NCBI GenBank assembly: GCA_038128845.1
Contig: JAYPKL010000001.1
Coordinates: 42,338 to 106,337 of the forward strand
Direction of reading: 5' to 3'
DNA: 64,000 nucleotides
DNA from: Candidatus Woesearchaeota archaeon
Lineage (GTDB): Archaea; Nanobdellota; Nanobdellia; UBA10117; ARS21
Positions 1-59,783 of the stretch are shown here, one piece after another. A program made the position numbers and the translations under genes. Within the stretch, counting starts at the first letter, position 1, and each line of letters starts with the position of its first letter. The notes under the pieces were generated by a model that saw nothing but the letters and a program-made list of their open reading frames with translations, was not told where the DNA came from and did not search any database.

Positions 1-40
1 AAGCTGTGAACTAATATAAAGATTTCTGGAAAAAAAGATA

Positions 41-819: not shown

Positions 820-860
820 ATAAATTAATTGTTTTATTGTTTATATAGTTTTTTGAAAAA

Positions 861-2465: not shown

Positions 2466-2539
2466 TTCAAATCTTAGTGAGTAAGATTTTTAAGAGGTAG
2501 TTTTAGCAAGAATTTTAATATAAAACAACAATATAATTT

Positions 2540-2962: not shown

Positions 2963-2992
2963 AACTTATATACTAAGATAAACATTTTTTTT

Positions 2993-4052: not shown

Positions 4053-4085
4053 TAAGAGTTATATTAAAAAAATTAATATATTTTT

Positions 4086-9318: not shown

Positions 9319-9355
9319 CTAAAAAAACATATATAATAAAATAACAATAATAAAT

Positions 9356-15117: not shown

Positions 15118-17226
15118 ATGTTAGTTTCAAGTATAAAAGATAAACTTCCTGAAAAGTTTTTCAAAACAATTGAATTTGAAGAATTTAGACCTTCTCAAAG
15201 CAAAGCAATAGATAGGGGACTTTTGGAAAGTAAAAATATGTTAATATGTTCTCCGACTGCTTCGGGTAAAACTTTTGTTGCAGAACTAGCCGGAATTAAA
15301 AGTATAATTGAAACTGGTGGTAAAATGATTTATATTGTTCCGCTTAAATCTCTTGCAACTGAAAAAGCAGAAGAATTCAAAAAGTATGAAGAAATTGGAA
15401 TTAAAACGGCAGTTTCAATAGGAGATCCAGAATCAAAAGATCCGTGGTTGGCAAATGCAGATATAATCGTATGTACTAGTGAAAAATTCGATTCATTATT
15501 AAGACATAATATTTCTTGGTTAAATAAAATTAAAGTAGCAGTATTTGATGAAATTCATTTAATAAACGATTCAAATAGGGGACCAACATTAGAAGTTATA
15601 ATAACTTTGTTGAAAACTTTGTTAAATAAAATTCAAATTATTGGACTTTCAGCAACAATTGGAAATCCAAAAGAACTTTCAGATTGGTTAGAGGGCGAAT
15701 TAATTCAAGATTCTTGGCGTCCAGTAAAACTTATTCAAGGAATTTATGCAGATGAAGAAATAAACTTTGAAAAAAAAGTAATACCTGTTGAAAAAATAAA
15801 AAATGATGCAACTTTATCTTTGGCATTAGATACAATAAATTTGGGTAAACAAGCACTAATATTCTGTCCAACAAAAAAATCTGCTCAATCAACTGCCAAA
15901 AAAATTTCAAATTTAATAAAATCTGAACTAAATAAAGACTTATCTTCTAAAATTAAATCTGCCGCAGGAGTTCCCACAATGCAATGTGAAGAACTTGGTG
16001 ATTGCGTAAGCAAAGGTATTGCATTTCATCATTCAGGTCTTTTATCAAAACAAAAAAAAATTGTTGAAGAAAATTTCAAAAATAATATAATAAAAATAAT
16101 TTGCTGTACGCCAACTCTTGCGATGGGAGTTAATCTTCCTGCATTTAGAGTTATTATGAAGAGTCTAAAAAGATATGGAAAAAGAGGAATGGATTGGATA
16201 CCCGTATTAGAATATCATCAAATGACGGGTAGAGCAGGAAGACCAAAATTTAATGATTCTCACGGAGAGGCAATTTCAATAGCAAAAGATAATTCTGAAT
16301 TTGATTACATAAATGAATCATATTTAAGAGGAAGTGCAGAAGATTTAACTTCAAAATTGGGAGTTGAACCGATACTAAGATCGGTTATATTGAGCTTAGT
16401 TGCATCAGGATTTGTTATAAAAGAAGAAAAATTAATTGAATTTTTTAGTAATACATTTTATGGTTCTCAATTTGGTAATGACTTTGGTTTTAAAATTAAA
16501 ATATTATCAGCATTATCTGATCTTGAAAAATTTAAATTTCTTAAAAGAACGGAAACATCTATAATTCCAACAGTGGTGGGAAAAAGAGTTTCTGAATTAT
16601 ATATTTATCCTGATGCTGCTTTTGAAATAATTAATAATTTTGAAAAGATGTCTAATATTTTTGAAGATTTACCTTTCTTACATTCAATAAGTTCAAATTT
16701 AGAAATGAGTCCGTGGTTATCTTTACAAAAAAAAGATTATGAATATATCGATATCTCTTTATCTGAAATTGAAGACAAATTAATAAATCCAATTCCATAT
16801 CAATGGGATTATGAATATGATGAATTTTTAAGAAAAACAAAAACTTGTTTTGTATTGAATGAATGGATAAATGAGAGTAATGAAAAAGAAATATTTGAAA
16901 ACTATAATGTTGCACCTGGATTGATGAGAGATATTTCTAATAAATGTGAATGGTTACTTTATGGTGCTGCTGAATTGGCCAAGGTGACTGGAAATTTAGA
17001 TAAAGTTAGCGATATAACTAAACTAAAAATAAGAATTAAAAATGGAATAAAATCTGAATTACTGCCGTTAATTAGATTGAAAGGTATTGGAAGAGTGAGG
17101 GCAAGAAGATTATTTGGATCGGGATTAAAATCTTTACAAAATTTAAAATCTGCAAATATAGAATTGCTTTCTGATATTCTCGGTGAAAAAACTGCAATAT
17201 CTGTTAAGAAACAATTGAATTTATAA
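15118..17226 (+). CDS. hel308: Hel308/Hjm-type Ski2-like DNA helicase
   Basis: Motif I SPTASGKT, motif II DEIH, motif IV HHSGL, and a C-terminal winged-helix/HhH region. 702 aa. Confidence 0.8.
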   Translation: MLVSSIKDKLPEKFFKTIEFEEFRPSQSKAIDRGLLESKNMLICSPTASGKTFVAELAGIKSIIETGGKMIYIVPLKSLATEKAEEFKKYEEIGIKTAVSIGDPESKDPWLANADIIVCTSEKFDSLLRHNISWLNKIKVAVFDEIHLINDSNRGPTLEVIITLLKTLLNKIQIIGLSATIGNPKELSDWLEGELIQDSWRPVKLIQGIYADEEINFEKKVIPVEKIKNDATLSLALDTINLGKQALIFCPTKKSAQSTAKKISNLIKSELNKDLSSKIKSAAGVPTMQCEELGDCVSKGIAFHHSGLLSKQKKIVEENFKNNIIKIICCTPTLAMGVNLPAFRVIMKSLKRYGKRGMDWIPVLEYHQMTGRAGRPKFNDSHGEAISIAKDNSEFDYINESYLRGSAEDLTSKLGVEPILRSVILSLVASGFVIKEEKLIEFFSNTFYGSQFGNDFGFKIKILSALSDLEKFKFLKRTETSIIPTVVGKRVSELYIYPDAAFEIINNFEKMSNIFEDLPFLHSISSNLEMSPWLSLQKKDYEYIDISLSEIEDKLINPIPYQWDYEYDEFLRKTKTCFVLNEWINESNEKEIFENYNVAPGLMRDISNKCEWLLYGAAELAKVTGNLDKVSDITKLKIRIKNGIKSELLPLIRLKGIGRVRARRLFGSGLKSLQNLKSANIELLSDILGEKTAISVKKQLNL

Positions 17227-29088: not shown

Positions 29089-29343
29089 ATGTCTAAATCA
29101 AAATCAAGCGAATTGTTGGGTAAAACAGTAGTTTCTAAATCTGGAAAAAGATTCGGATCATTATCTGATCTAATTTTTGAATCTCGGACTGGTGAATTAA
29201 TTTATTTAGCAATAAAAAGTCCAACAGATTATTGTAGAAGTTTGGAACTTGAAAACGATAAATTATCAGGTCTTTTAATTCCTTTTTCTGCAGTTATATC
29301 TACTGGAGATTTTGTAATTGTTGCAGAAGAAGATATTGTTTAA
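29089..29343 (+). CDS. small PRC-barrel-like protein (hypothetical)
   Basis: 84 aa. Pattern LLGKTVVSKSGKRFGSLSDLIF...GELIYL. A paralog lies at 40707..40967. Confidence 0.35.
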   Translation: MSKSKSSELLGKTVVSKSGKRFGSLSDLIFESRTGELIYLAIKSPTDYCRSLELENDKLSGLLIPFSAVISTGDFVIVAEEDIV

Positions 29344-29780
29344 AAAACGTTTAATATATCTTTGGATTGTTTTAGTAAGTAATCCGATCCATAATCAGAT
29401 AAATAAAATAATTTTGGTCGTCCATCAATTGAAGATACGTGTCCAGTTGTTTCTAATTCATTTAACTTATTACGTATAGTTCTCTCCGATTTTTTCAAAT
29501 TAAATGCTGCCTTAATTTGAATAGAAGATACAGCATAATTTGCATTTATTGCTTGACCTTGCTTCAACATTAATAATAATTGATTTGAACTGATACTTAA
29601 ATTTCTTGCCGCAAGAGGAGTTTCTTTCTTTTGAGGTTTTGAATTTAATTCAAGAATTTTTTCTAATAAAAATTGATATTTTGATTTCATGGTTTCTAAT
29701 TCTGAATTGGTTTTATCGAGTTTAGATTTTAATTTTTCAATATCTGACTTATGGTTATTAAGTATCTCGTAAACATCCAT
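29340..29780 (-). CDS. coiled-coil protein with C-terminal winged-helix-like domain (putative DNA-binding)
   Basis: 146 aa. N-terminal heptad-rich region and a C-terminal segment (ERTIRNKLNELETTGHVSSIDGRPKLFYLSDYG) resembling a wHTH. Shares the MDVYE N-terminus with 61685..62128. Confidence 0.4.
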   Translation of the reverse strand: MDVYEILNNHKSDIEKLKSKLDKTNSELETMKSKYQFLLEKILELNSKPQKKETPLAARNLSISSNQLLLMLKQGQAINANYAVSSIQIKAAFNLKKSERTIRNKLNELETTGHVSSIDGRPKLFYLSDYGSDYLLKQSKDILNVF

Positions 29781-29830: not shown

Positions 29831-29853
29831 TACCCCTTTGTTTCCTATGGAAA
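29831..29853 (-). promoter_or_regulatory. origin-recognition-box (ORB)-like element, copy 1
   Basis: TACCCCTTTGTTTCCTATGGAAA. The minus strand reads TTTCCATAGGAAACAAAGGGGTA, which is a TCCA-N3-GGAAAC dyad followed by a G-string. Confidence 0.5.
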
Positions 29854-29913: not shown

Positions 29914-29936
29914 TACCCCTTTGTTTCCTATGGAAA
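29914..29936 (-). promoter_or_regulatory. ORB-like element, copy 2 (identical 23-mer; 83-bp spacing; direct repeat)
   Basis: Identical to 29831..29853. Contains the TAG stop (minus strand) of the Cas4-like gene within its TCCTATGG core. Confidence 0.5.
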
Positions 29937-30620
29937 GTCTTTATCTCGATTGAAACATATGTCTTTAAATTCGCAGTAATTGCAAGCAAATGACTCTTGT
30001 CTTTCGGGAGGCGATTCAGTCTTTAGTGCATATGCCAAAGTGGTTCCTCTTGCTTCCAAATAATTTATCATATCTCTTTTTTCGATCTCATAAACTCTAA
30101 CTTCTTTAAGAGAAAAATAAACTATCTTTAATGCTTTAATTTGTGATTGTCTTAATGGATCAATCATACTGAAATAAGACTGAAGTTGTTTAACGTGTTC
30201 TTCTTTTGGTTCATTGGGAATTCTTTCAATAGTCTTAAATTCATACATAATATTGTCAGATAATACATCTACAAATCCTATTGCGGAAAAAAGTCCAAAA
30301 TCTTTCTTAAGAAAAACTTCGTTTTCATGTTCTTCCAAATGATCTTGAAAAAAATTATGAATTGCATGACCTCTCGAAAAAATCCATAATTTTTCCAAAG
30401 GAAGAGGTATTTCTTCAACTAAGTCGTAATAAGATCGCCTTATGCACGGTCCAGTTAATCGAGTAACTCCAAATCTAGGATTTCCTTCTCTTTTTTTCTT
30501 ACTTTTATTTCTTCCTGCAAGAAGCGCTTTTAATACAACAGGAGGGTAGTGTTCAAAATCTTGTGTTAAGACATCTTCAACGTCTCTTTCAACACCGTCA
30601 GGACACAATATTTTTGTCAT
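29928..30620 (-). CDS. Cas4/RecB-family PD-(D/E)xK nuclease with 4-Cys Fe-S cluster motif
   Basis: 230 aa. N-terminal Cys (ILCPDG), nuclease motifs IGFVDVL / EFK / QLQSY, and C-terminal C-x2-C-x5-C (CNYCEFKDIC). Overlaps the PolD DP2 stop by 4 bp. Confidence 0.6.
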   Translation of the reverse strand: MTKILCPDGVERDVEDVLTQDFEHYPPVVLKALLAGRNKSKKKREGNPRFGVTRLTGPCIRRSYYDLVEEIPLPLEKLWIFSRGHAIHNFFQDHLEEHENEVFLKKDFGLFSAIGFVDVLSDNIMYEFKTIERIPNEPKEEHVKQLQSYFSMIDPLRQSQIKALKIVYFSLKEVRVYEIEKRDMINYLEARGTTLAYALKTESPPERQESFACNYCEFKDICFNRDKDFP

Positions 30621-33600
30621 ATAAATTCACCGAGTCCTTTTTGTTTAGTTAATTCTTTTCCAAATACAGAATCTATTCTTTTTTGTAATAAAACTATGGT
30701 TTCTCTCAAATAAGGCGATACTCCTTCTATTTTCATTAATTCGTGTGTAGCTTCAATATATTTTTTTATTGATCCTTCGCTTATTGTGTAAATTAATTTT
30801 GGATTTTTACATGAATTACATATTCCTGATAAAGGCATTCTTCGATATTTTTCGTTGCATTTTGGACATCTAAATTGTTGCATAGTAAATTTACGTAAAT
30901 TTCCTTTTGTATCTCTTATGAAGTGTCCGTTTACTATTAATTCTGCTAATTTTGGTAAACTAACTGCTCGGATTAATTTGGCCAATTCCACTTGTCCAGC
31001 CATTTTTTCTGTCATAGTGGGCAATGTTTTATATGCAGAAACTAAGACTCCTTCATTCAGATTTGAAACCGGATGTGTGAATAGATGATTTTCGTATTGA
31101 TCAATTGTATCCAGTGTGTCTTTTATTGTTCTTATATTTATATCCCATGGTTCTTTCATTGCTCTAGCACATTCATAAAATTCTAAAGGATATGAATCAA
31201 CAATATTGAGATCGTAAACTTCATCATCAACTTCCTTTGAATTCAAGATTGTTGTAATAACTAAAGGTGCATCCATTGAACGCGAACCTCTTTGATCCGG
31301 TAAAAAATCTCTTGAAAAATTTAAGAATGCATCTAACATGAGCATAATCGAAGTTTCTTCTCCGTCTAAATCTCTTCTCTGTGCGGCATGCCAATATGGA
31401 TGTGCAAGTAAAGCAGAAATTTTAGAAAATCCAATGATCCTTCCGGCAATACCTGCAGAAGTATGTGGCGCGAGTCCGATAATCATTCTGCCAATTAAAT
31501 CTTCTTTTACGGCAATATTATAGTATGCTTTTTGATTATAGAGTCTTGTTAATTCTTCATCAACAAAGTTTGCAGTTCGTAATAAAACTTCAGATCCTGA
31601 TTCAGATCCTAGTTGATCTCCGTCCGGTATTATGACATCTTGCGGAAATATTTCAATTAACTGATTGGCGTCTGTTATTGGGTTTCCTAAATAATCTGAT
31701 TCATAACCTAATTTTTTTAATTTTTTTAGAGTTAATCCTATCTCTATTGGTTTAAAATGAGTAACGCCAAGTTCAGTTCCATCATATCTTATTGTTCCGT
31801 CTTTATTAACTCTTAAAGAAAATTTAGCTCTCAATATGCCTTTAAGAGGGTGTTCTGCATATCTGTGTTTATTTAACGTTCTCTCAACACCTTTTATTAG
31901 TTGAGGTATTTCGTCATCCCATTCGGATATTGTTTTTTTATATAATTCAGATATTTGATATTTGCGTTTTTCAAATGCCCGGACGCGAATGTCTTTCGGA
32001 GGTTGATCGTATTTTATTTTTGTTTTTGGATCAACATATTTTTGTGAAGTATTAAACGAGTCGCAATTTTCACATTTTTTATATAACGACTGTTTATTAC
32101 AATCCAAACAATATAGTAAAGGAAAATCCGAATAAACGTATCCCTTCTTGACTACATCTACAAAATTGTTCATTCTACCTCCTTCCTTCCCTACTGGAAA
32201 TAAAAAATTTGGCGATCCTTTAAGATCTCTCATTTTTGCTTTCTCCGGTCTGCCCATTCTTGCGCCTATTGCTGTACCCCATAAATCTTCGATAGTATAT
32301 TCTGAAAAATCATTAATTAAATTCAAAGAATTTGTATAATTTTCTACATTTGCATCAGTTAGATTTTCATTTAGATTTAATTTTAATGTTTTTAGAATTT
32401 TTTCATCAAATTCAATCTCCGAATTTATATTTCTATGTTCGGCGCCAATTAATTCAATTGATCTTTTTATTGAATCAGTTAACTCCTTTTTTTTGTATAA
32501 GTATTTTGTTAAATCGACCACTTCTTTTGGTGAAATTTCATTCCAGTAAAATATTAATTCTGGATGTAAAGGAATATTGTAGTTTTTTGAAATATTTAAT
32601 AATAATTCATATTCTATTTTTTGTGGTAAAAATGAATCAAAAAAATTTGAATTTAAATTATTTTTTTGTATAAACTCGCTTTTGTTGTCTATTTTTGATT
32701 TTAATATATTGAACCACCATTCCGGACAAAATCCCGGTGGAGCAAGGAAATGATTATTTTCTAAAAATTCTCCTTGGGAAATTAAAATATCTCCCAAAAA
32801 TAAAATCTCAGATATTTCTTTAGTAATTTCGTTTGCTTCCGAAACTGTTTTTGGTTTTACAACAGAACCGTCTTTAAGTTTCAATATTGGTCCTTCGATT
32901 GAATCGCATGCAGTTAAGGATGTTGATTTTCCGGGTCTTTCGACTCTTAATTGAGTTCCTATTGCTAAGTAATCTTTACAAACTGCCATAGTTATCGGAG
33001 ATATTGCCCAAGAACCATGTCCTGTCAATCTAGATCTACCATAACGTAATCTAAATCCTCCTTTTCGCAGAGGGTGAGTAAATATTGGACGTCCCGCAAC
33101 TATTTCAGAGATATAAGAATAGTTTGGTTTTAATTTTGACTCGTCTTTTTTTGAATCAGATCTTGAGTGTATTTTTTTCTTTAATTCCAAGAATTCTTCC
33201 AGCCAATTCCAATCCGATAAATTAAAATCGGAGCCCCATTCCTTTATTTTTTTAAGTACTTTTGCACCTTTTAGAGGAATACAATCCGTTAATAATAATG
33301 CCATTCCGCCTCTTATTCTATCTGTCTCTATACGATCTAAGTTCTTGAAATTTGAAACAGATAATTTTGATGTTGGATCTCCGTTTAGTTCGACAGATAA
33401 GTTTGAAATGATAAATTTCATTTCTTCTTCGGTAGGCTTGTATTGTTTTCGCTCAACTCGATCATAATAATCGGTAACTTCCGTATAAAATCTTCTTATT
33501 TCGTCTTCCGAAGGATCGTATTTATCGATGTTATGTATTTTTCTAACGTAATCAGTTATTACTACTGTTACTGCAGATGCAGTTGCACCTCCCCCTCGAA

Positions 33601-34060
33601 TTGGACCTGCAAAATACATTGCTAAGTATTTTTTTCCATCTCTTCTTTTTTTAAAACGAATATCGATTAAACCCTCTAAGGGTGCTGAAACTGTGCCTTG
33701 CGTTATGTATGCAAATCCTGTTCTTATTCCAATATTTATTGCAGTTATTTGATCATCAAATTTGCAAAATTGTTCCGTAGATATTTCTTCCGCTAATTTT
33801 AGTGCAACTCTCCAATCTCCAAAACCAAATTCGGTTTCTAATTCGTTAATTCTTTTTGGGATTCCTTTTCCGATGATATTGGGAGATATTGATCCCATAA
33901 TTGCTTCAACTCTTTCTGAAACAGATGCTGCTATAGGAATATCTGATTCAAGTTGTGGATCTATTCCTGTTTTTTTAGCTAAGTTTGCAAGACTGTTGAG
34001 TTCGTGTGTTTTTTCATTCATAAAATTAAAATATTTTTGAATAGGTTGTGATGCAATCAT
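30617..34060 (-). CDS. DNA polymerase II (PolD) large subunit DP2
   Basis: 1147 aa with no intein. Assigned by length and architecture, C-terminal Zn-finger cysteines (CPKCN...CNSCK), and position next to orc1/cdc6 and DP1. Confidence 0.85.
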   Translation of the reverse strand: MIASQPIQKYFNFMNEKTHELNSLANLAKKTGIDPQLESDIPIAASVSERVEAIMGSISPNIIGKGIPKRINELETEFGFGDWRVALKLAEEISTEQFCKFDDQITAINIGIRTGFAYITQGTVSAPLEGLIDIRFKKRRDGKKYLAMYFAGPIRGGGATASAVTVVITDYVRKIHNIDKYDPSEDEIRRFYTEVTDYYDRVERKQYKPTEEEMKFIISNLSVELNGDPTSKLSVSNFKNLDRIETDRIRGGMALLLTDCIPLKGAKVLKKIKEWGSDFNLSDWNWLEEFLELKKKIHSRSDSKKDESKLKPNYSYISEIVAGRPIFTHPLRKGGFRLRYGRSRLTGHGSWAISPITMAVCKDYLAIGTQLRVERPGKSTSLTACDSIEGPILKLKDGSVVKPKTVSEANEITKEISEILFLGDILISQGEFLENNHFLAPPGFCPEWWFNILKSKIDNKSEFIQKNNLNSNFFDSFLPQKIEYELLLNISKNYNIPLHPELIFYWNEISPKEVVDLTKYLYKKKELTDSIKRSIELIGAEHRNINSEIEFDEKILKTLKLNLNENLTDANVENYTNSLNLINDFSEYTIEDLWGTAIGARMGRPEKAKMRDLKGSPNFLFPVGKEGGRMNNFVDVVKKGYVYSDFPLLYCLDCNKQSLYKKCENCDSFNTSQKYVDPKTKIKYDQPPKDIRVRAFEKRKYQISELYKKTISEWDDEIPQLIKGVERTLNKHRYAEHPLKGILRAKFSLRVNKDGTIRYDGTELGVTHFKPIEIGLTLKKLKKLGYESDYLGNPITDANQLIEIFPQDVIIPDGDQLGSESGSEVLLRTANFVDEELTRLYNQKAYYNIAVKEDLIGRMIIGLAPHTSAGIAGRIIGFSKISALLAHPYWHAAQRRDLDGEETSIMLMLDAFLNFSRDFLPDQRGSRSMDAPLVITTILNSKEVDDEVYDLNIVDSYPLEFYECARAMKEPWDINIRTIKDTLDTIDQYENHLFTHPVSNLNEGVLVSAYKTLPTMTEKMAGQVELAKLIRAVSLPKLAELIVNGHFIRDTKGNLRKFTMQQFRCPKCNEKYRRMPLSGICNSCKNPKLIYTISEGSIKKYIEATHELMKIEGVSPYLRETIVLLQKRIDSVFGKELTKQKGLGEFI

Positions 34061-34098: not shown

Positions 34099-34428
34099 TT
34101 GAAAAATATACATATGAGAGGTAGACCTACGTTTAGTCCAATAAGAAATAATTTAGTTGAATTAATTTATTTTATGGGTAGTTCATATGGCTATGATATA
34201 TATAAAAAGTATATTGAAATTTTTCCAAAAACAACTATGCGTTCAATTTATTATCATTTAAATAAAGGATCCAAATTAGGTGTATTTGTAGTTTCTAAAG
34301 TCGAAGAAGTAAAGGGCGATTATTCTTGGGGCATTGGCGTAAGAAGAGTAAATTTCAAATTAGGTCCTAATGCTCAACCTAAAAAAGATTTGATGATTTT
34401 GAAAAAATTAAAATCAATTAAAAAATAA
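34099..34428 (+). CDS. small hypothetical protein, possible winged-helix DNA-binding protein, abutting oriC
   Basis: 109 aa. Basic, with an HTH-like segment (GYDIYKKYIEIFPKTTMRSIYYHLNKG). The stop is 2 nt before the left ORB. Confidence 0.35.
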   Translation: MKNIHMRGRPTFSPIRNNLVELIYFMGSSYGYDIYKKYIEIFPKTTMRSIYYHLNKGSKLGVFVVSKVEEVKGDYSWGIGVRRVNFKLGPNAQPKKDLMILKKLKSIKK

Positions 34429-34430
34429 CT

Positions 34431-34456
34431 CTCACCCTTGCGTTTCTTGTGGAAAA
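34431..34456 (-). promoter_or_regulatory. ORB (origin recognition box), left, inverted orientation
   Basis: The minus strand reads TTTTCCACAAGAAACGCAAGGGTGAG. Confidence 0.5.
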
Positions 34457-34558
34457 TTATTTTATTTATTATAATTTTATAATAAAATATATTAATTAAT
34501 TACTATATTGAAAATAAATAAAATAAAAAATTTTTTTGATATATTATATACAATATAA

Positions 34559-34585
34559 TTCCATAAGAAACAAAAGGGTAGGGGG
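34559..34585 (+). promoter_or_regulatory. ORB, right, forward orientation
   Basis: TTCCATAAGAAACAAAAGGGTAGGGGG. Confidence 0.55.
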
Positions 34586-34645: not shown

Positions 34646-34658
34646 TTTCCTATGGAAA
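34646..34658. promoter_or_regulatory. mini-ORB dyad TTTCC-TAT-GGAAA overlapping the orc1/cdc6 start codon
   Basis: Same 13-mer core as the ORB copies at 29.8 kb. The ATG at 34652 lies inside it. Confidence 0.45.
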
Positions 34659-35863
34659 TTATGGATTCAGATTTAGACAATTTATTTGATGAATATATTT
34701 CAAAAAAATCTATCTTTTCAAATAAAGAAGCATTGCTTTTACGTTATTTTCCAGAAAATATACCTCATCGATCCGAACAAATAAAAAAACTAGGTATGAT
34801 TTTAGCACCAGCATTAAAAAATAACAAACCATCAAATTTATTTATATATGGAAAAACTGGAACAGGTAAAACTCTGTGTACACAATTCACTATACAAAAA
34901 TTGTTAGAAAAAAGTAAATTAACTGGAGCCAAAATAAAGTATGCTTACTTAAATTGTAAATTAAAAAAAATTGCAGATACCGAATACAGAGTAATCGCCA
35001 GCTTAGCAAAAGAATTGGGCGAAGACGTTCCAGTTACGGGATTACCTACTGACGAAGTTTACAACATATTTATTAATAAAATAGATTCAGAAGATCAAAT
35101 TATTTTTCTTGTGTTGGATGAAATTGACAGATTAGTTAAAAAAAGCGGCGACGAAATACTTTACTCTTTGACTCGAATTAATTCGGAATTAAAAAAGTCA
35201 AAAATATGTTTAATTGGAATATCAAACGATGTTCGTTTTATTGAAGATGTTGATCCGCGGGTAAAAAGCTCTCTTGGTGAAGAAGAATTAATTTTTCCGC
35301 CTTATAATGCGCTGGAATTAAAAGACATCTTAAAAGAAAGAAGCGAAATTGCATTTTCAGAAGATTCTTTGGACTCAGCAGTTTTAGCAAAATGTGCCGC
35401 ATATGCTGCAAAAGAACACGGAGATGCAAGACGTGCACTAGATTTACTCAGAGTTGCAGGTGAAGTTGCAGAAAGAAGTAATGAAGAAATTGTAAAAATG
35501 GAACATATCAAAAAAGCAGAAGAAAAAATAGAAATTAATCGTATTTTTGAATTAGTTAAAACATTACCATCACAATCAAAATTAATTTTATATTCCATAT
35601 TTAATTTATCTGAAACAATAACAAAACTTGAAACGGGCGAAATTTATGAAGAATATAAGAACTTATGCAATATAAACAATAGTGCAATATTAACTCAACG
35701 AAGAATATCTGATTTAATCTCCGAGTTAGATATGCTCGGCCTAATAAATGCAAGATTAATCAGCAAAGGCAGACACGGAAGAACCAGAGAAATTTATTCA
35801 ACAATACCTTCAGATCTAAAAGAAATTTTAATGAAAGATTTAAAATCCGAACTAATGTTATGA
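34652..35863 (+). CDS. orc1/cdc6: Orc1/Cdc6 replication initiator (AAA+ plus winged helix)
   Basis: Walker A IYGKTGTGKT, Walker B LVLDEIDRL, sensor residues, and a C-terminal wH (LGLINARLISKGRHGRTREI). Confidence 0.9.
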   Translation: MEIMDSDLDNLFDEYISKKSIFSNKEALLLRYFPENIPHRSEQIKKLGMILAPALKNNKPSNLFIYGKTGTGKTLCTQFTIQKLLEKSKLTGAKIKYAYLNCKLKKIADTEYRVIASLAKELGEDVPVTGLPTDEVYNIFINKIDSEDQIIFLVLDEIDRLVKKSGDEILYSLTRINSELKKSKICLIGISNDVRFIEDVDPRVKSSLGEEELIFPPYNALELKDILKERSEIAFSEDSLDSAVLAKCAAYAAKEHGDARRALDLLRVAGEVAERSNEEIVKMEHIKKAEEKIEINRIFELVKTLPSQSKLILYSIFNLSETITKLETGEIYEEYKNLCNINNSAILTQRRISDLISELDMLGLINARLISKGRHGRTREIYSTIPSDLKEILMKDLKSELML

Positions 35864-37194
35864 ATTACAAAGATTTAATTAAAACTGCTCAAGAAAACAC
35901 AAAAAAAGAAGTTGTTATTGTAAAAAATAATATCGACGATTTAAAATCAAATCTAAAAGTAGTTAAAGAGTTTGACTATAAACCCAAAAAAGTAGAACCG
36001 TCCGATTTCACACAACACTTCAGAGAAAGATTTAAATTTTTAAGAAACACATTATTCAATCGACCGGAAGCTGCTTCAACAATTTCAATAAATCAAGCAA
36101 AAAAATCTTTTGAAAAAAACATTACAGTAATTGCAATGGTAAATGATGTAACGAGGCTTCCAACTGGAACAATGCTCGTATCTGTAGAAGATCTAACTGA
36201 TCAACTCGAAATAATTATTTCATCAAAAAACAAAGAACTAATAGAAAAATTACAATTTCTTACATTGGATGAAGTACTAATTTTCAAAGGCAACATAGTA
36301 AACGAAAAAATGTTTTTATCAGATATAATTTGGCCAGACGTTCCTGCCAAAAATCCAGAATATGCACCTGATGACGTTTATGCAGTTTTCTCAGGAGACA
36401 TTCATATAGGAAGTAAACAATTTTTACCAAAACAATTCGACACATTTATCGATTGGCTATCTGGAAAAATTGGAAACGAAAGACAAAAAGAAATTGCAAA
36501 AAAAACCAAATATTTCTATATTCCAGGAGATTTAGTTGACGGAATAGGTATATATCCAAATCAAGAAAAAGAGTTAGATATAAAAGATTTGAGAGGACAA
36601 TATGACGCTCTTGCAAGATATCTCGAAAAAGTTCCAGATGACAAACATATAATTATTTGTCCAGGTAATCATGATACTGCGGTCCGTTTAGAAGAACCAC
36701 AACCAAAAATGTACGAATACGCAGAAAAAATTTCAGAATTACCAAATGTAACTATGGTAACAAACCCGTCTTATACAAATATTCATTCATTTGATAATTA
36801 TTCGGGGCAAGATGTTCTAATGTATCACGGATATTCCTTTGATAATTTAATCGATCAAGTTGAAGGATTAAGATTATCCGGCGGTTATGAGTCTGCAGAT
36901 GAAATACATAAATTTTTACTTAAGCGGCGACATTTATCTCCTACTCACAATTTAAACTTAACTTTACCAATAAAAAAAGATCCAATGGTTATAGACAAAA
37001 TTCCCGATATAATGGTGACGGGACATATACACAAAGCAAAAATCGGATCATATAAATCAACCATATCTATTTCAGGAAGTTGTTGGCAATCTATTACGTC
37101 ATTCCAAGAAAAATTGGGACATAAACCGGATCCAGGGATGATACCAATTACCAATCTTAAAACAAGACAAAGCAAGATGTTATCTTTCAAATAA
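35860..37194 (+). CDS. DNA polymerase II (PolD) small subunit DP1 (Mre11-like phosphoesterase)
   Basis: Calcineurin-like motifs FSGDIHIGS, PGDLVD, CPGNHD and GHIH. N-terminal OB-like region. Overlaps orc1/cdc6 by 4 bp. Confidence 0.85.
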   Translation: MNYKDLIKTAQENTKKEVVIVKNNIDDLKSNLKVVKEFDYKPKKVEPSDFTQHFRERFKFLRNTLFNRPEAASTISINQAKKSFEKNITVIAMVNDVTRLPTGTMLVSVEDLTDQLEIIISSKNKELIEKLQFLTLDEVLIFKGNIVNEKMFLSDIIWPDVPAKNPEYAPDDVYAVFSGDIHIGSKQFLPKQFDTFIDWLSGKIGNERQKEIAKKTKYFYIPGDLVDGIGIYPNQEKELDIKDLRGQYDALARYLEKVPDDKHIIICPGNHDTAVRLEEPQPKMYEYAEKISELPNVTMVTNPSYTNIHSFDNYSGQDVLMYHGYSFDNLIDQVEGLRLSGGYESADEIHKFLLKRRHLSPTHNLNLTLPIKKDPMVIDKIPDIMVTGHIHKAKIGSYKSTISISGSCWQSITSFQEKLGHKPDPGMIPITNLKTRQSKMLSFK

Positions 37195-44265: not shown

Positions 44266-44870
44266 AACTATTGGCTTTTACAGACACACACGGAAAAAAA
44301 TCAAATATTGACGAAATTAAATTAATTGCAAAAAAATATAAACCCGATATTTTAATTTCTGCAGGAGATTTTACAAATTTTGGAAAAAATATAGATGATA
44401 AATTAAAAGAATTTGATTTCGGATTCAAACTTTTATATATACTCGGAAACCACGAAGAAGAAAGCGAAATATCTTATTCACCAAAAAATTTTTTTAACAT
44501 CCATATGAATTCTAAAATAATTAAAGATATTTTATTTCTGGGATGCGGAGGAGGACTATTTGGTGAAATTGAAAATAATTTTGAAAAGTGTAAAAATGAA
44601 TTTAAAAAAATAATATCCAATTTCAAAAAAAATAATCCTACTGGAAAAGTTGTATTAATAACTCATCGGCCGCCAAAAAATACTAAATTAGATTATATGA
44701 AAAAATATTCTTCAGGAGTTGGAGCAAAAAATATATCTGATTTTATTCAAGATAATGCAATTGACATAGCTATTTCAGGACATATACATGAAAATTTCGG
44801 AAAAGTAGATTTATTAAATAAAACAAAATTATATAATCCGGGACCAAAAGGTAGAATTATCAAAATATAA
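44262..44870 (+). CDS. calcineurin-like metallophosphoesterase
   Basis: FTDTHG, GDFTNFG, GNHE and GHIH motifs. Overlaps serS by 4 bp. Confidence 0.6.
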   Translation: MKLLAFTDTHGKKSNIDEIKLIAKKYKPDILISAGDFTNFGKNIDDKLKEFDFGFKLLYILGNHEEESEISYSPKNFFNIHMNSKIIKDILFLGCGGGLFGEIENNFEKCKNEFKKIISNFKKNNPTGKVVLITHRPPKNTKLDYMKKYSSGVGAKNISDFIQDNAIDIAISGHIHENFGKVDLLNKTKLYNPGPKGRIIKI

Positions 44871-46882
44871 TGGAATTAATTATTGCCGAAAAACCAAGTG
44901 CTGCAAAAAAAATATCTGAAGCCTTGGGAAATTTCAAAGTTAATAAATTTCGAAACGTAACTTATTTTGTTTCAAAAGATAATTCGATAGTAATTCTTCC
45001 AGCAGTAGGACATTTATTCAATTTAAAAAAAAACAAAAGATTTTATCCGGTTTTTGATTTAATTTGGATTCCAAATCATGAAATTTCAAAATCTTCTTCA
45101 TTCACTAAACCTTATTTAGATTTATTTAAATCATTTAAAAATAAAATATCAAAAATTACAATTGCAACAGATTATGATTCAGAAGGCGAAGTTATTGGTT
45201 ACAACATTTTACGAAATATTTACAATAAAGAAAATGCAAATCGAATGAAATTCTCATCTATGACTTTGGACGAATTAAAAAATTCTTATAAAAATAAAAA
45301 TAATTCAATCAATTTACCTCAAGTAAATGCAGGTTTATTAAGACATTACCTTGACTGGTATTATGGAATAAATTTGTCTCAGATTTTGTCAAAATCTGTT
45401 TCAAATAAAATAAATCGTTATCAACCAATGAGTATTGGAAGAGTACAAGGACCAATATTAGCCATACTATCTGAAAGAGAAATAGAAATAGAAAATTTCA
45501 AATCTAAATTTTTTTGGCAAATATTTGCAAATATTTATCTAAATAAAAATTCGATCAAAGCATCACATAAAAAAGATAAATTTTTTGATGAAGTTAATGC
45601 AAAAAATATTTATAATAAAGTTATTAATCAAGATGCAAAAGTTTCAAAGATAGATAAAATTGCAAAAAAAATACCTCCTCCTTTTCCGTTCAATTTAACA
45701 AATTTACAATTAGAAGCTTATAAATTATTTAAATACACTCCTTCGATGACACTAAAACTCGCACAATCACTTTATTCAAAGGGTTATATTTCTTATCCTC
45801 GTACTTCTTCCCAAAAATTACCCAAATCCATCGGATACGAAAAAATCTTCAACAAACTATCTAAAAATATAGAGTATTCAAATTTAATTAAACAATTAAA
45901 TTTAATTAATTCCAGTCCAAATAATGGACCAAAAAGCGATCCCGCTCATCCGGCAATTTATCCCACTGGAAATCTACCGAAAAAAATATCACCTTATGAA
46001 ATTAAAATTTATGATTTGATTGTAAAAAGATTTTTGTCCTCATTTGGAAAAGAAATGATTCGAGAGAATACTTATGTAGAGATTGATATAAATTCCGAAA
46101 AATTTCAATTTTCAACCTCAAAAACTCTAGCAGAAGGTTGGTCAAAATTATATACTAATTATTTAAGACTAAAAAATACAGTTTTACCTGATTTAAATGT
46201 GGGTGACATTATTAATCAAAATTCATCAATAGAGAAAGGCGAAACAAAACATCCACCGAGATATACTCCTGCGTCACTAATAAAGTTATTAGATAGAGAG
46301 GGAATCGGAACAAAAGCCACTCGATCATCCATAATTGAAATTTTAGAAAATAGAAAATATATTTCAGGAAATCCAATTAAAGTAACTAAATTTGGCATGA
46401 ATTTATTTTATACTTTAAAGAAATTTTGCCCCGAAATAATCTCAGTAAGTTTAACTAAAAAATTAGATAACTCAATGCAACAAATATTAGAAAAAAAATT
46501 AGACAAAAATAAAATCCTAAGTATTGCAGAAAATAACGTTTCAGAATATTACTCTAAGTTAAAAAATAATTCTGAAAAAATCGGAGATATACTGGCTAAT
46601 TCATTTAAAGATACAAAATCAAAACTCATCGAATTATATTTGCATGATTGTGGAAATATGCTTATTATTAGAAATTCAAAAAAATCAAAAAAGAGATTTA
46701 TTGCATGTTCTAATTACCCCGAATGTAAATTTACATTACCGTTACCTCAGAGAGGAAAAATTTCTGTGGAAAATAAAAAGTGTAATAAGTGTAACAATCC
46801 AATTTTAAGTACAACTAATAAAAAGAAAAAATGGACTTTTTGTCCAAATCCTGCGTGCAAATCAGAAAATGAAACTACCTGA
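44870..46882 (+). CDS. topA: type IA DNA topoisomerase (TopA/Topo III-like) with C-terminal Zn ribbons
   Basis: Toprim N-terminus (ELIIAEKPSAAKKI), catalytic Tyr region (SYPRTSS), and C-terminal C4 zinc ribbons (CSNYPECKF..., CNKCN...CPNPAC). Confidence 0.8.
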   Translation: MELIIAEKPSAAKKISEALGNFKVNKFRNVTYFVSKDNSIVILPAVGHLFNLKKNKRFYPVFDLIWIPNHEISKSSSFTKPYLDLFKSFKNKISKITIATDYDSEGEVIGYNILRNIYNKENANRMKFSSMTLDELKNSYKNKNNSINLPQVNAGLLRHYLDWYYGINLSQILSKSVSNKINRYQPMSIGRVQGPILAILSEREIEIENFKSKFFWQIFANIYLNKNSIKASHKKDKFFDEVNAKNIYNKVINQDAKVSKIDKIAKKIPPPFPFNLTNLQLEAYKLFKYTPSMTLKLAQSLYSKGYISYPRTSSQKLPKSIGYEKIFNKLSKNIEYSNLIKQLNLINSSPNNGPKSDPAHPAIYPTGNLPKKISPYEIKIYDLIVKRFLSSFGKEMIRENTYVEIDINSEKFQFSTSKTLAEGWSKLYTNYLRLKNTVLPDLNVGDIINQNSSIEKGETKHPPRYTPASLIKLLDREGIGTKATRSSIIEILENRKYISGNPIKVTKFGMNLFYTLKKFCPEIISVSLTKKLDNSMQQILEKKLDKNKILSIAENNVSEYYSKLKNNSEKIGDILANSFKDTKSKLIELYLHDCGNMLIIRNSKKSKKRFIACSNYPECKFTLPLPQRGKISVENKKCNKCNNPILSTTNKKKKWTFCPNPACKSENETT

Positions 46883-47002: not shown

Positions 47003-47695
47003 TTAATAAGAAAATTCAAATTTTTTAGTTCCACTTGATTCAATTATATTTTTGGAAGTTATTTCAAAATTTACTTTTTTCGGAGGAATGGATCTATGCT
47101 TAACTAATTTTAATTTTCTACCTGTAATATCCGTCCTCAATTGAATTATGCATTTTGAAGTATATTTCATCAAATCTCCTCCGACCATCTTAATATTTGA
47201 ACTATTTTCAAAATCCGCATAAACTTGATTTGTTAATAATATTGGTATTTTTTTATCATGAGAAATTTTTCTTAAGATACTTAATTGTCTTGCAAGTTCT
47301 TTATTAACATCATATGCTTCACGTTCACCTTTCTCCAATCGATATAACATAGATATTGAATCTACAATAATTAATCCAACATCATTTTTATTTGATATCT
47401 CTTCAAGATTGTTGAATATTTCTGATTGTTCAAAAAAACTATTTGGTTTACTTATTATCAAATTTTCAATTCTTTTTTCATAATCTGAAAACAATTGTTT
47501 TGCTCTTTCAATTGAAAAACCACCTTCTGTATCAATAAATATAACTTTTTTATCTTTCGAATTATTCAATGCAATTAATATTGCAATATTTGTTTTACCG
47601 CTGCCACTTGGACCATAAATTGTTGTTGTAACTTCTGGCTCAAGACCACCTTCTAAAATATCATCAATAAGTTCAGAACCAGTACTGACTCGCAT
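47003..47695 (-). CDS. radB: RadB recombinase paralog (RecA/RadA superfamily)
   Basis: 230 aa. Walker A GPSGSGKT, Walker B LIIVDSI. It lacks the N-terminal HhH domain present in the RadA encoded at 57833..58837. Confidence 0.75.
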   Translation of the reverse strand: MRVSTGSELIDDILEGGLEPEVTTTIYGPSGSGKTNIAILIALNNSKDKKVIFIDTEGGFSIERAKQLFSDYEKRIENLIISKPNSFFEQSEIFNNLEEISNKNDVGLIIVDSISMLYRLEKGEREAYDVNKELARQLSILRKISHDKKIPILLTNQVYADFENSSNIKMVGGDLMKYTSKCIIQLRTDITGRKLKLVKHRSIPPKKVNFEITSKNIIESSGTKKFEFSY

Positions 47696-50277: not shown

Positions 50278-51153
50278 TTAACCAAGTATTATTGGTTTAT
50301 CTTCGACAATTATTGTGTGTTCAAATTGAGAAACAACCGAACCTCTTTTTTCTAAAAGTACTTGATGATCAGTTAATAATTCATTTCTAACTAAGTATGC
50401 AATTGAAGATTTTGCTTTTGCATATCCAAACTTGTCTTGTATATCTCTAATATTAAACGGCAATGTTAAGAATTCCTTCTTAATAAAATTAAGAACATCC
50501 CTATAAAGTCTAACTGGTTTATCAGATTCCAATTGATAAATTCCGGAACTTTTTCCTGATTTTATCATACCGTCTCCGTCCGTTAAGAACGGTTCAACCG
50601 CAATAACCATTCCTCTTTCCAGTATATCGTTTGTTTTAGTATCATAATTGGGAATACCAAATCCGCTGTGAATATCATACTGCTCGATTCCGTGACCGGT
50701 TAAGTTTTTGATTATTTTATATTTTGAACCCTTTACTACTTTTTCTACTGCTTTACCAATTTCAGAAACCTTTACACCGGGTTTTATAACTTTCAGCGCT
50801 TCATCCAAAGCTCGTCTATTCAAATTTATTAATTCAGCATGATTATCTGTTTCTATTTCAAAAGTAATTGCACTATCCACAATAAATCCGTCAATATGAA
50901 CTCCTATGTCCAATTTAACTAAATCTCCTTTTTCAAAAACACGAGTGTCATCAATCTGAGCAATATCATGCGCAGCAGTATCGTTAACAGAAATATTTAC
51001 TGGAAATGCAATTCCTCCTCCCAATTCTAAAATTTTATTTTCAATTTTCTTAGAAAATTCAAGATAATTCATTCCCGATTTAGCAATAGATTTTCCATAT
51101 TCCTTACATTTCTTAGATATTTCACTTGCTTTTTGATATTTTTTTACATCCAT
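50278..51153 (-). CDS. map: methionine aminopeptidase, type 2 (archaeal MAP)
   Basis: Pita-bread fold motifs (VKLDIGVHIDGFIVDSA, HGIEQY). 291 aa, typical of archaeal MetAP-2. Confidence 0.85.
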   Translation of the reverse strand: MDVKKYQKASEISKKCKEYGKSIAKSGMNYLEFSKKIENKILELGGGIAFPVNISVNDTAAHDIAQIDDTRVFEKGDLVKLDIGVHIDGFIVDSAITFEIETDNHAELINLNRRALDEALKVIKPGVKVSEIGKAVEKVVKGSKYKIIKNLTGHGIEQYDIHSGFGIPNYDTKTNDILERGMVIAVEPFLTDGDGMIKSGKSSGIYQLESDKPVRLYRDVLNFIKKEFLTLPFNIRDIQDKFGYAKAKSSIAYLVRNELLTDHQVLLEKRGSVVSQFEHTIIVEDKPIILG

Positions 51154-53393
51154 GATGATAGCCCTGAATTAAGATTTTTTAATTGTTCTTCTTTGTAATT
51201 AAATAATTCAAATATTTTATAGGTTGCTGCAATTAATTGTTTATCGATATAATAGTCCTTATCAATATCTTCTTTTTTTGCATTCTTTGAAAGGATTACT
51301 TTATCTCTTATCAACTTACTTTTTTTATTACTAACTACGTATTCAACAATTGTTCCAGGTTCTACAACCAAGTTTTCTTTTTCCATTAATCTTCCTGCTG
51401 CCACCTGCGGTCCAATTGATTTATAATCATTCAATCTTCTTGTTAATTTATTTTTTAAAACAAATTTTTCGATATCGATTTTATTATTTCTTATATCTTC
51501 AATAATTTGTTTTATTATTTTTTCTGCAGATTTTATTGATTTCGTTTCTAAAACACTCTTTAATATCTTTAATTGAGATTCTTTTGATAATTTACTCCAA
51601 TCTCCTCTTTTGGATTCAAGACCCTTTATTATTAAATTGCCATCCTTTTTTAACAAAGCATATCTCTTTTTTGCACCCGCACTCGAGTTACGCTTTTCCA
51701 AAAAAATTCCCGAAGCGTAGTCTCCCTCATCCTCCAATTCCATTGGATCGGGAAGAGTCTTATTTATATTTTCAATAAAAGAATCCACATTAGGATTGTT
51801 AATTAAAAATATGGAGTCGGTATCTCCATAAATTACTTTTATTTTTTCTTTATTTGCTTGCTCAATTAAATTTTCTATATATTTTCTACCGTATGCAGTT
51901 ATACTTCTTGCACAATCAAACGAATACCAACGAGCACCATAAAAACCCATATATCCATAAAATGAATTTGCCAGAATTTTAAGAGCATAAGATTCACCAT
52001 CCAATTTTTTAACATTTATAATATCGGTTTCATTTTTCAATTTATTTTTCACCTTTATTCTTTGATTAATAATTTGCTTCAAAATATTTGGTAAAAAACT
52101 ATTTTTATTTTCAAAAAAAACTTTTTTATCTGGAAGATTAATTTCATTATTTCCCGATTCGTAAGACATACTATACGGCTCAATATTATGTGCAATAATT
52201 ATTGAAGGATATAGACTTCTAAAATCAAAAACTCTAACGTTCTCGTATAGACCAGGTTTAGGTTGATAAACAAAAGCACCTTCATATTTTGCATACATTC
52301 TTTCAGAGATTTCTTTGTTATTTGGTTTTCTTTCTATAACTCTATTCTCTAAATAAGCATTTTTTAAAATAAATAATTCTACAAGTTTACCAAATTTCAT
52401 TCTCGTAACCTCATTCAGCGGCATATTAATTAAATTGCTAAATTCTATTGCAATATCTAAAACTTTTAACATTAAATCATGAGTTAATTTAGAATCTTGT
52501 AAATTATATTTACATATTTCATCTAATTTTTCTTTTTCATTCGATTCAAAGTAGTTTTGTATCTTTGCTCCAAGATCCGAAGTCTTAACTTCTCCCAACA
52601 TTGCTTCAGCAACATCGTTCAATTTTAGAGATTTAGATCCAATGCTTTGAGATAAAACATTTCGAATAAATATGTATACATCTATATTCGTGATTCCATT
52701 TATTTCAATTTTATTTTCTCTTCCTGCTCTTTTTTCTATTAATTCTGAATTTAGCGTACCCAGTTTAAGATTCATGTTATTTTTTTTCATTCTATCTAGT
52801 ATAAATTTTAGATCAAATCTATCGGAATTATATCCACAAATTATATCTGGATTAAATTCATTTATTGTATTTGCAAAATCCCATAATAATTCTTCTTCAT
52901 TTTCAAAATTTTTTACATAGTCAAGATCCGAATTAAATTTTTTAGAAATCGAAACTTTACTATAATTTTTAGAATAATAAGAAATAGATAAAATTTTGTC
53001 ATATTTTGAATCCGGAAATCCATAATTTGATTCAGTTTCTATATCGAATGCCAATATTTTTGGTTCTTTATCAAAAAATTTTATTTTATTTTTTACCAAA
53101 GACTTATGTATTAGATTAATATCGTGCTCAAATACATCTTCTTCATTAAAATTGGTTAGTGCATCCTTCAGATCTTTTTTATTTTCAAACTCTATTTTAG
53201 CAAGTTTTGTTTTTATATTTCTAAAATTTTTTTCAACCAAAGTGTAAGAATATTCTTTAAGATCATAATTTGTAAAATTATTCAATAATAAATAATATTT
53301 TTCTAGTTCAAATTTATTTGTTTTATTACTTTCGTTATTAATTAAATAAAATTTCCGAGAATTAATCTCGGAATAATCTACTGCAGTATTCAT
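51144..53393 (-). CDS. polB: family B DNA polymerase (PolB)
   Basis: Exo I FDIETE, Exo II YNSDRFD, Pol motif A region, and motif C YGDTDS (KVIYGDTDSIFL). 749 aa. Confidence 0.85.
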   Translation of the reverse strand: MNTAVDYSEINSRKFYLINNESNKTNKFELEKYYLLLNNFTNYDLKEYSYTLVEKNFRNIKTKLAKIEFENKKDLKDALTNFNEEDVFEHDINLIHKSLVKNKIKFFDKEPKILAFDIETESNYGFPDSKYDKILSISYYSKNYSKVSISKKFNSDLDYVKNFENEEELLWDFANTINEFNPDIICGYNSDRFDLKFILDRMKKNNMNLKLGTLNSELIEKRAGRENKIEINGITNIDVYIFIRNVLSQSIGSKSLKLNDVAEAMLGEVKTSDLGAKIQNYFESNEKEKLDEICKYNLQDSKLTHDLMLKVLDIAIEFSNLINMPLNEVTRMKFGKLVELFILKNAYLENRVIERKPNNKEISERMYAKYEGAFVYQPKPGLYENVRVFDFRSLYPSIIIAHNIEPYSMSYESGNNEINLPDKKVFFENKNSFLPNILKQIINQRIKVKNKLKNETDIINVKKLDGESYALKILANSFYGYMGFYGARWYSFDCARSITAYGRKYIENLIEQANKEKIKVIYGDTDSIFLINNPNVDSFIENINKTLPDPMELEDEGDYASGIFLEKRNSSAGAKKRYALLKKDGNLIIKGLESKRGDWSKLSKESQLKILKSVLETKSIKSAEKIIKQIIEDIRNNKIDIEKFVLKNKLTRRLNDYKSIGPQVAAGRLMEKENLVVEPGTIVEYVVSNKKSKLIRDKVILSKNAKKEDIDKDYYIDKQLIAATYKIFELFNYKEEQLKNLNSGLSSWM

Positions 53394-59762: not shown

Positions 59763-59783
59763 AGTCTAGTTTTAATAGTTTAA

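Follow-up and report, generated by a model that had tools for sequence, protein, structure and literature searches.

Introduction

Why should the gene for a Cas4-like nuclease lie directly behind the gene for the large subunit of a DNA polymerase? The question is raised by a 64,000-nt stretch of DNA from a Candidatus Woesearchaeota archaeon (contig JAYPKL010000001.1), which we call the window and whose positions serve as coordinates throughout. In this stretch, which has a G+C content of about 25–33%, a gene for a protein of 230 residues follows the gene for DP2, the large subunit of DNA polymerase D (PolD), and a preliminary description made from the sequence alone had named the product a Cas4/RecB-like iron–sulphur (Fe-S) nuclease with a dedicated role in replication or repair. 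Cas4-family proteins encoded apart from CRISPR arrays and from other cas genes, known as solo-Cas4, are found in most DPANN archaea, some of which encode two distinct kinds, and the survey that described them left their function open, as a role still "to be characterized" (Hudaiberdiev et al. 2017, PMC5704561). For the protein in the window, the gene context tips the balance, if modestly, towards a nuclease coupled to replication or repair, that is, one that would process DNA ends or flaps. We set out below what carries this view and the other accounts against which it has to be weighed.

Identity of the 230-residue protein

The two Pfam models that bear on the assignment both score the protein above their gathering scores (Cas_Cas4, PF01930: 32.0 bits, gathering score 22.7; PDDEXK_1, PF12705: 25.9 bits, gathering score 22), which answers the call for a hidden Markov model (HMM) search in the preliminary description, and in PADLOC every best match is a Cas4 model. 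Precomputed domains in 67 homologs give a similar picture, with PF01930 in 54, PF12705 alone in eight and neither in five. The CRISPR Cas4 equivalog, TIGR00372, is matched at 40.7 bits, short of its cut-off of 65. Residue conservation was read from two alignments: A1, which holds 30 homologs that are 42–86% identical to the window protein, and A2, which is broader and includes distant relatives. C6, C59, H88, D118, E127, K129, Q145 and Y149 are invariant in A1, and with them the PD-(D/E)xK motifs (D, E-x-K and Q-x3-Y) that had first been picked out in the window protein. D118, K129 and Q145 are invariant in the distant relatives too, where position 127 is either D or E.

The cysteines call for a correction. 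Cys6 and the C-terminal C-x2-C-x5-C had been proposed as the four-cysteine set typical of Cas4; no intact homolog lacks the C-terminal three (C213, C216 and C222), but the predicted first ligand is C59 and not Cys6. In a profile alignment to SSO0001, the Cas4 of Saccharolobus solfataricus (PDB 4IC1), C59 falls opposite the cysteine of VRCPRRVRY, CNYCEFKDIC opposite CKYCIFSVIC, IGFVD opposite GRADA, EFKT opposite EIKT, and QLQSY opposite QLQIY, and the alignments to TIGR00372 and to the PADLOC Cas4 models begin at residue 59; Cys6 was therefore ruled out as the first Fe-S ligand. The conserved cysteines predict a cluster held by C59, C213, C216 and C222. SSO0001, with which all four cysteines and the D/ExK/QxxxY residues align, is a [4Fe-4S] 5′→3′ single-stranded DNA exonuclease; it differs from the window protein in being encoded in a CRISPR-cas locus and in having no CPDG module (the N-terminal segment discussed below).

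An AlphaFold2 model built from the alignment (mean predicted local distance difference test score, pLDDT, 82) has SSO0001, a Cas4/Cas1 fusion and a type I-C Cas4 as its top fold matches in the PDB. Profile and fold searches were needed because a search of the PDB with the single sequence gave a marginal match alone (4R5Q, E 0.095). The 230-residue protein has neither the fusion to a superfamily 1B (SF1B) helicase seen in the Dna2 type nor the arrangement of the AddB/RecB type, in which the nuclease forms the C-terminus of a UvrD-like helicase subunit. In view of the HMM matches, the invariant motifs, the profile alignment to SSO0001 and a predicted fold nearest to that enzyme, we assign the protein, with little doubt, to the Cas4-family Fe-S nucleases, its predicted active site residues being intact; to this extent the first identification stands.

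The protein has no CRISPR context in the window. Tandem Repeats Finder gave no CRISPR array in the 64 kb, Rfam gave four tRNAs only, and Pfam scans of essentially all larger open reading frames (ORFs) of the window gave no cas1, cas2, cas3 or effector gene, which extends to the whole window the earlier remark that no array or other cas gene is nearby. No cas gene was seen beside the nuclease in related loci, where likeness to genes of the window served to identify what lies next to it. A CRISPR remnant was ruled out on these grounds, Rfam having matched no CRISPR family either, and by the definition of Hudaiberdiev et al. (2017) the nuclease counts as a solo-Cas4. It is like the surveyed proteins (COG1468/PF01930) in being a single-domain PD-(D/E)xK protein with the C...CxxCx5C set and with no cas neighbours or array; it differs from them in its extra N-terminal module and its conserved DP2 operon, which mark a narrow subfamily. 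Another solo-Cas4, that of M. mazei, is reported to cleave double-stranded or supercoiled DNA indiscriminately (PMC12501428).

Linkage to the PolD large subunit

The overlap of 4 bp between the 230-residue ORF and the DP2 stop codon, already noted in the preliminary description, can be read directly: the nuclease ATG (30620–30618) and the DP2 TGA together form ATGA, and a Shine–Dalgarno-like GGTGA element (30631–30627) lies 6 nt 5′ of the ATG. The upstream partner is indeed the PolD large subunit and is complete, with matches to the Pfam domains PolC_DP2_N, central and cat (E 1e-78 to 1e-109) and to TIGR00354 (1087 bits). Its C-terminus, KQKGLGEFI, has a KQxxLxx[FW][ILF] form that is kept in 24 related loci and that we take, leaning on established knowledge of PolD, to fit the PCNA-interaction (PIP) box. 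From such junctions we infer co-transcription and translational coupling of DP2 and the nuclease, which form a tight and probably co-translated unit at the origin.

The pairing recurs in related genomes. A scan based on the nuclease, with one genome per species, gave 27 loci (L001–L027) at 42–68% identity. The labels of the nearest metagenome-assembled genomes (Woesearchaeota, Pacearchaeota, Nanoarchaeota or Nanoarchaeia) mark the source of the window as a DPANN archaeon, probably a marine one. Of the 27 loci, 24 have DP2 directly upstream of the nuclease gene and on its strand, and in 18 of these 24 the junction overlaps or leaves at most 6 bp between the genes. The identities of the nuclease and of DP2 to their counterparts in the window track one another closely over 23 loci (r = 0.97, mean difference −1.8 points), so the nuclease has diverged at the same pace as an essential replicase, a pattern that fits vertical co-inheritance and a strong constraint, similar to that on an essential gene. 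One locus, L019, has the largest spacer between the two genes (624 bp); its DP2 gene also carries some 1.4 kb of inserted sequence close to residue 900 (2425–3848 of that locus), which breaks the alignment and may be an intein.

The reciprocal scan, in which metagenomes were searched with DP2, sets the limits of the association. It returned 80 loci (L031–L110) at 50–70% identity over the C-terminal 400 residues, 72 of which have enough downstream DNA to judge. The nuclease gene is directly 3′ of DP2 in 11 of these 72, and all nine of the 11 that include the upstream region have a divergent layout, with orc1 and a small gene on one strand and DP2 and the nuclease on the other. Four further loci have this layout with no nuclease gene within 4 kb, and resemble two rearranged genome loci (L008 and L015) described below. 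At 57 DP2 loci an HMM search at E ≤ 0.01 found no Cas4-like ORF within 4 kb; among these, DP1, the small subunit, precedes DP2 on the same strand in nearly all that have upstream DNA, and orc1 precedes DP1 where the sequence reaches that far. Many such colinear loci have instead a conserved ORF of about 135 residues on the opposite strand 3′ of DP2.

Because 57 DP2 loci are without a Cas4-like gene, PolD is not generally in need of a Cas4-like partner, and the idea that the pairing is a general feature of PolD was ruled out. The co-occurrence with polD for which the preliminary description had called is thus found within one clade, in the 24 genome and 11 metagenome loci, and fails outside it. 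Fusions of DP2 with Cas4 were also ruled out: the longer proteins among the distant relatives (P0091, P0083, P0087, P0079, P0103 and P0175) have PDDEXK_1 only, or no domain, and carry no DP2 domains. We conclude that the DP2–nuclease association is real and old, that it is limited to one clade, and that it coincides with the break-up of an ancestral-looking colinear operon.

The three remaining genome loci have lost the arrangement. In L008 and L015 the opposite strand carries DP2, beyond orc1–DP1 and some 7.7 kb upstream of the nuclease gene, and in L016 there is no DP2 in the 3.5 kb available upstream. The nuclease gene lies in all three beside a peptidase gene and a full-length gene for the helicase-nuclease Hef, it is still followed on its 3′ side by repeats resembling origin recognition boxes (ORBs) and by a small helix-turn-helix (HTH) gene, and it stays inside the origin-proximal island. 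That the gene is kept after detachment from DP2 would suit a housekeeping nuclease of recombination or repair, engaged for example in end resection at double-strand breaks together with RadA and the HerA-like ATPase, for which the place behind DP2 is historical and implies no direct coupling to PolD. RadA, the HerA-like ATPase, Hef and Hel308 are all encoded in the window, and oriC islands commonly gather replication and repair genes whose products do not form complexes (PMC2643942). The difficulty for this account is that through deep divergence the junctions of 18 of 24 loci have stayed overlapping or nearly abutting, which indicates more than loose membership of an island, and that the nuclease gene is absent from the clades with the colinear PolD operon. 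We consider a housekeeping role of this kind rather unlikely.

N-terminal module and C-terminal tails

The segment that precedes the Cas4 core is built in most relatives as C-x10-12-C-x2-C-x3-4-C (for example 'KCPDGSEKEIEECLECSKCYP'). Its first cysteine, Cys6 of the window protein (codon 30603–30605, minus strand), lies in CPDG and is as invariant in A2 as in A1; in the marine subclade to which the window belongs, the other three have been lost. We read the module as a degenerate relic of a putative four-cysteine zinc ribbon (ZnR).

At the other end, about half of the distinct ortholog C-termini bear long, low-complexity and variable tails. The motif Q-x-x-[LIMV], usually in the form Q-[TSAK]-[TSK]-L (as in ...QTSLEISGN), falls within the final 12 residues of 28 of the 39 distinct long tails (examples are L004 10673–10741, L018, L008, P0016 and P0049). 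Shuffled tails have it 3.4 ± 1.7 times, and 0 of 2000 shuffles reach 28; as the tails are related by descent, the count of 28 in 39 is not a probability. In a few tails the canonical PIP box is complete (EQKTLATIF) or the ending is LxxFF. The common Q-x-[TSK]-L ending looks like a PIP box cut off after its first half, and through it the nuclease may be tethered to PCNA or to another fork protein; DP2 of the same genomes ends in what fits a full PIP box. Short linear interaction motifs typically appear in this way, as a conserved end on a variable linker, and PCNA is an obvious candidate partner.

Relatives in restriction–modification operons

A HMMER search over 1.8 billion cluster representatives (50% identity) gave 1307 proteins at E ≤ 1e-3 and eight at E ≤ 1e-30; since only eight of the 1307 reach the stricter threshold, the orthologous group is small and set apart within the Cas4 family. 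The next-closest proteins are 22–28% identical and have the same architecture of ZnR and Cas4. A second protein search with the broader alignment added three more distant relatives with gene context, and no more. Distant relatives could be placed on contigs in three cases (L028 1354–2070, L029 2209–2922 and L030 742–1407): two sit between the hsdM/S and hsdR genes of type I restriction–modification (R-M) systems, and for the third only a downstream hsdR-like gene was identified. Like the window clade, the ZnR-Cas4 proteins of R-M operons (P0098, P0113 and P0219) combine the N-terminal module, here C-x11-C-x2-C-x3-C, with a Cas4 core; their four N-terminal cysteines are all retained, against a single one in the window clade, and they lie in an hsdM/S–hsdR setting, whereas the window nuclease lies behind DP2. 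This comparison of sequences and neighbourhoods suggests that the DP2-linked and defence-linked forms are sister lineages, and the R-M-associated relatives fit the R-M-linked DPANN solo-Cas4 of the 2017 survey.

It is these relatives that lend substance to the idea of a defence nuclease, linked to DP2 neutrally or by an expression-driven hitch-hike on a strongly expressed operon. The Cas4 family is defence-associated overall, and some DPANN solo-Cas4 genes adjoin R-M genes, for which defence roles have been suggested (PMC5704561). However, no defence gene adjoins the nuclease in the window, in the 27 genome loci or in the 11 metagenome loci, the close tracking of DP2 divergence is not the patchy distribution and rapid turnover of defence genes, and the displaced nuclease gene has remained in the replication island. 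A defence function with incidental linkage accordingly strikes us as rather improbable.

The origin and the surrounding island

The predicted oriC core consists of an inverted pair of ORB-like elements, at about 34435–34455 (minus strand) and 34559–34580 (plus strand), that flank some 100 bp of nearly pure A+T. It lies just upstream of orc1; on the other side, roughly 400 bp that hold a small conserved gene separate it from the start of DP2, to which it is likewise upstream, and the earlier statement that the operon is directly at the origin is therefore right as an approximation. The layout agrees with that of the usual archaeal origin beside orc1/cdc6 (PMC4010727). The small gene, for a protein of 109 residues, is found at the same position in related loci at 41–75% identity, and DP1 adjoins orc1 in related loci too. 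A further dyad, TTTCCTATGGAAA, overlaps the orc1 start codon (34646–34658).

At the 3′ end of the nuclease gene are two exact copies of a 22-mer, 83 bp apart and 4.6 kb from the origin core, for which 0 matches are expected by chance. The 22-mer closely resembles what we take to be the archaeal ORB consensus (TCCA-N-GGAAAC...GGGG). Twelve related loci (L001–L009, L015, L016 and L018) have similar pairs just 3′ of their nuclease genes. The gene that follows encodes a protein of 146 residues in which HTH models of the LexA/Csa3 type are only weakly matched (E 1e-2 to 5e-5); its likeness to the Csa3/CasR HTH (E 5e-5 to 2e-4, far below the cut-offs) is probably that of a generic winged helix. A homolog follows the nuclease gene in L001–L008, L013, L015, L016 and L018, even with DP2 elsewhere. 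The ORB pair at 29.8–29.9 kb could serve Orc1-dependent control of this HTH gene or could be an auxiliary origin element.

One might go further and see the real unit in the nuclease gene, the ORB pair and the winged-helix gene, placed under Orc1, with the nuclease acting near the origin (in initiation or termination) or within an Orc1-regulated module. Two perfect ORB-like 22-mers at the end of the gene, ORB pairs in 12 loci of which some have no adjacent DP2, and an HTH gene that travels with the nuclease gene are what this proposal has to offer. The ORBs are, however, upstream of the HTH gene and could regulate just that gene, no ORB-like match lies near the nuclease gene in L010–L014, L017 and L019–L027, and no earlier case of a Cas4 that acts at origins is known to us. 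We think it very improbable that the nuclease serves the origin in this way.

The window as a whole is an unusually dense island of replication, repair and recombination genes (Table 1). Its Hef is split into two ORFs that overlap by 4 bp, whereas relatives have one protein of about 730 residues (L008 6850–9036, L016 369–2597); either a genuine split of the gene or a frameshift could account for the difference. A small metallophosphoesterase gene accompanies that for topoisomerase IA (region 44262–46882), and a gene for an oligonucleotide/oligosaccharide-binding (OB) fold protein accompanies those for RadA and the HerA-like ATPase (region 57833–61124). One tRNA match (62296–62399) covers 104 nt where the model has 71 positions, a difference suggesting that this tRNA gene contains an intron. 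The left end (1–14500) has a thermosome gene, archaellin/pilin-like genes, a gene for a surface protein of 906 residues with cadherin/Ig repeats, and genes for a type IV pilus/archaellum assembly ATPase and membrane proteins; this set fits the cell-attachment apparatus of an episymbiotic DPANN archaeon.

Table 1. Features of the nuclease locus and of the surrounding window (window coordinates; a full stop marks a feature listed with no strand)
Feature	Position	Strand	Remarks
Solo Cas4-family Fe-S PD-(D/E)xK nuclease gene (predicted), 230 aa	29928..30620	-	
PolD large subunit DP2, 1147 aa, no intein	30617..34060	-	Pfam and NCBIfam matches
ATGA overlap of DP2 stop and nuclease start	30617..30620	-	read directly from the sequence
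N-terminal module, residues 1–45 (MTKILCPDG...)	30486..30620	-	degenerate, zinc-ribbon-like; keeps only Cys6
Cys59 codon, first of the Cas4-type four-cysteine set (GPCIRRSYY)	30444..30446	-	invariant in A1 and A2
Catalytic core motifs D118 (IGFVD), E127-x-K129, Q145-x3-Y149	30174..30269	-	invariant in 30 homologs
C213-x2-C216-x5-C222, predicted C-terminal Fe-S cysteines	29955..29984	-	in every intact homolog
ORB-like 22-mer TTCCATAGGAAACAAAGGGGTA, copy 2, overlapping the nuclease stop codon	29914..29935	-	exact repeat
ORB-like 22-mer TTCCATAGGAAACAAAGGGGTA, copy 1, in the spacer between nuclease gene and next gene	29831..29852	-	exact repeat
146-aa coiled-coil and winged-helix protein, 3′ of the ORB pair	29340..29780	-	weak HTH matches
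Small conserved gene, 109 aa, between DP2 and origin	34099..34428	+	no Pfam hit above threshold
Predicted oriC core	34433..34580	.	inverted ORB-like pair around AT-rich stretch
Orc1/Cdc6 initiator gene, divergent from DP2	34652..35863	+	NF001625 522 bits, Cdc6_C, Cdc6_lid
PolD small subunit DP1, overlapping the orc1 stop	35860..37194	+	Pfam Metallophos and DNA_pol_E_B
Hef ERCC4-HhH nuclease part, 215 aa	37950..38597	-	
Hef helicase part, 473 aa	38594..40015	-	
Hel308-like helicase	15118..17226		
Topoisomerase IA	44870..46882		
RadB-like gene	47003..47695		
PolB	51144..53393		
RadA	57833..58837		
HerA-like ATPase	59784..61124		

Discussion

The role in replication or repair named in the preliminary description is a sensible proposal, though it outruns the evidence. 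The reading that we prefer, a nuclease coupled to replication or repair, can be put as a sequence of steps. In this clade of Nanoarchaeota-type DPANN archaea the nuclease gene has become fixed behind DP2, in an operon running away from orc1–DP1 at the chromosomal origin. DP2 and the nuclease would share one transcript, on which ribosomes would re-initiate at the ATGA overlap, and the nuclease would thread and degrade DNA ends or 5′ flaps in the manner of Cas4, Dna2 and Exo5. Its task would be replication-associated repair (at stalled or broken forks and on long flaps) and not CRISPR adaptation. In many orthologs, although not in the window protein, the C-terminal tail may add a tether to PCNA or another fork protein.

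Several observations weigh against this reading. Three genome loci, and probably four metagenome loci as well, have the nuclease gene apart from DP2, and the 57 DP2 loci with no Cas4-like ORF nearby belong on the same side. The nearest outgroup relatives stand in type I R-M operons, which is a defence context. The shortfall against TIGR00372 argues against a bona fide CRISPR Cas4 and is silent on any alternative role. The tails offer less than they might: the aromatic pair of the canonical PIP box is missing from most of them, and the tail of the window protein itself is short (FNRDKDFP) and has no Q-x-x-L motif. Finally, the loci, like the tails, are phylogenetically related, and the counts overstate the independent support.

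A stronger form of our proposal would make the nuclease a component of the replisome: a counterpart of Dna2 with no helicase, present in stoichiometric amounts with DP2, recruited through DP2 or PCNA, and processing 5′ flaps or ends for Okazaki fragment maturation or fork restart. We doubt that it goes so far, and hold this version to be distinctly unlikely. The nuclease domain of Dna2 and Exonuclease 5, both eukaryotic Fe-S nucleases, process 5′ flaps and ends in replication and repair. The role that we propose for the window protein is the same, by a functional analogy drawn from gene context alone; the window protein has no helicase domain, and in sequence and predicted structure it is nearer to Cas4.

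A parallel for the arrangement of the genes comes from Pyrococcus. According to Uemori (1997) and Hayashi (1999), the Pyrococcus radB gene reportedly lies 3′ of DP2, and RadB is said to interact with PolD. The cdc6–DP1–DP2–radB order is like that of the window in being an oriC-proximal PolD island with a recombination gene behind DP2. It differs in that the window operon is split into divergent orc1–DP1 and DP2–cas4 units, and in that the passenger behind DP2 is a nuclease and not a RadA paralog, the RadB-like gene of the window lying elsewhere. The Pyrococcus oriC island, which holds cdc6, DP1 and DP2, thus provides a precedent for recombination and repair genes in oriC-proximal PolD islands, and an interaction of PolD with RadB has been cited in this connection (PMC2643942).

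The protein family and the presence of solo-Cas4 in DPANN archaea were already known. Our literature searches pairing Cas4 with PolD yielded no paper describing a DP2–cas4 operon, and the word "polymerase" is absent from the text and supplements of the solo-Cas4 survey (PMC5704561). The clade-specific DP2 operon, the ZnR relic, the tail motif and the sister relationship to the R-M-embedded forms appear to be undescribed in the searchable literature.

Were the context of the gene a hitch-hike only, the finding would shrink to a well-annotated solo-Cas4. Were the replisome version true, the Cas4 family would have in it its first enzyme with a core role in replication, and biology a living example of the bridge from defence-type Cas4, represented by the R-M-embedded relatives, to Dna2-like replication nucleases. 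Solo-Cas4 is over-represented in the small genomes of DPANN archaea and of bacteria that belong to the candidate phyla radiation (CPR), and for this group the polymerase-linked subfamily gives a concrete and testable hypothesis, that of a replication- or repair-coupled nuclease, with the R-M-embedded sister genes as the natural comparison for the DP2-linked form. The locus bears on how flaps and broken forks are processed in PolD archaea of reduced genome, and on the relationship of Cas4 to Dna2 and Exo5.

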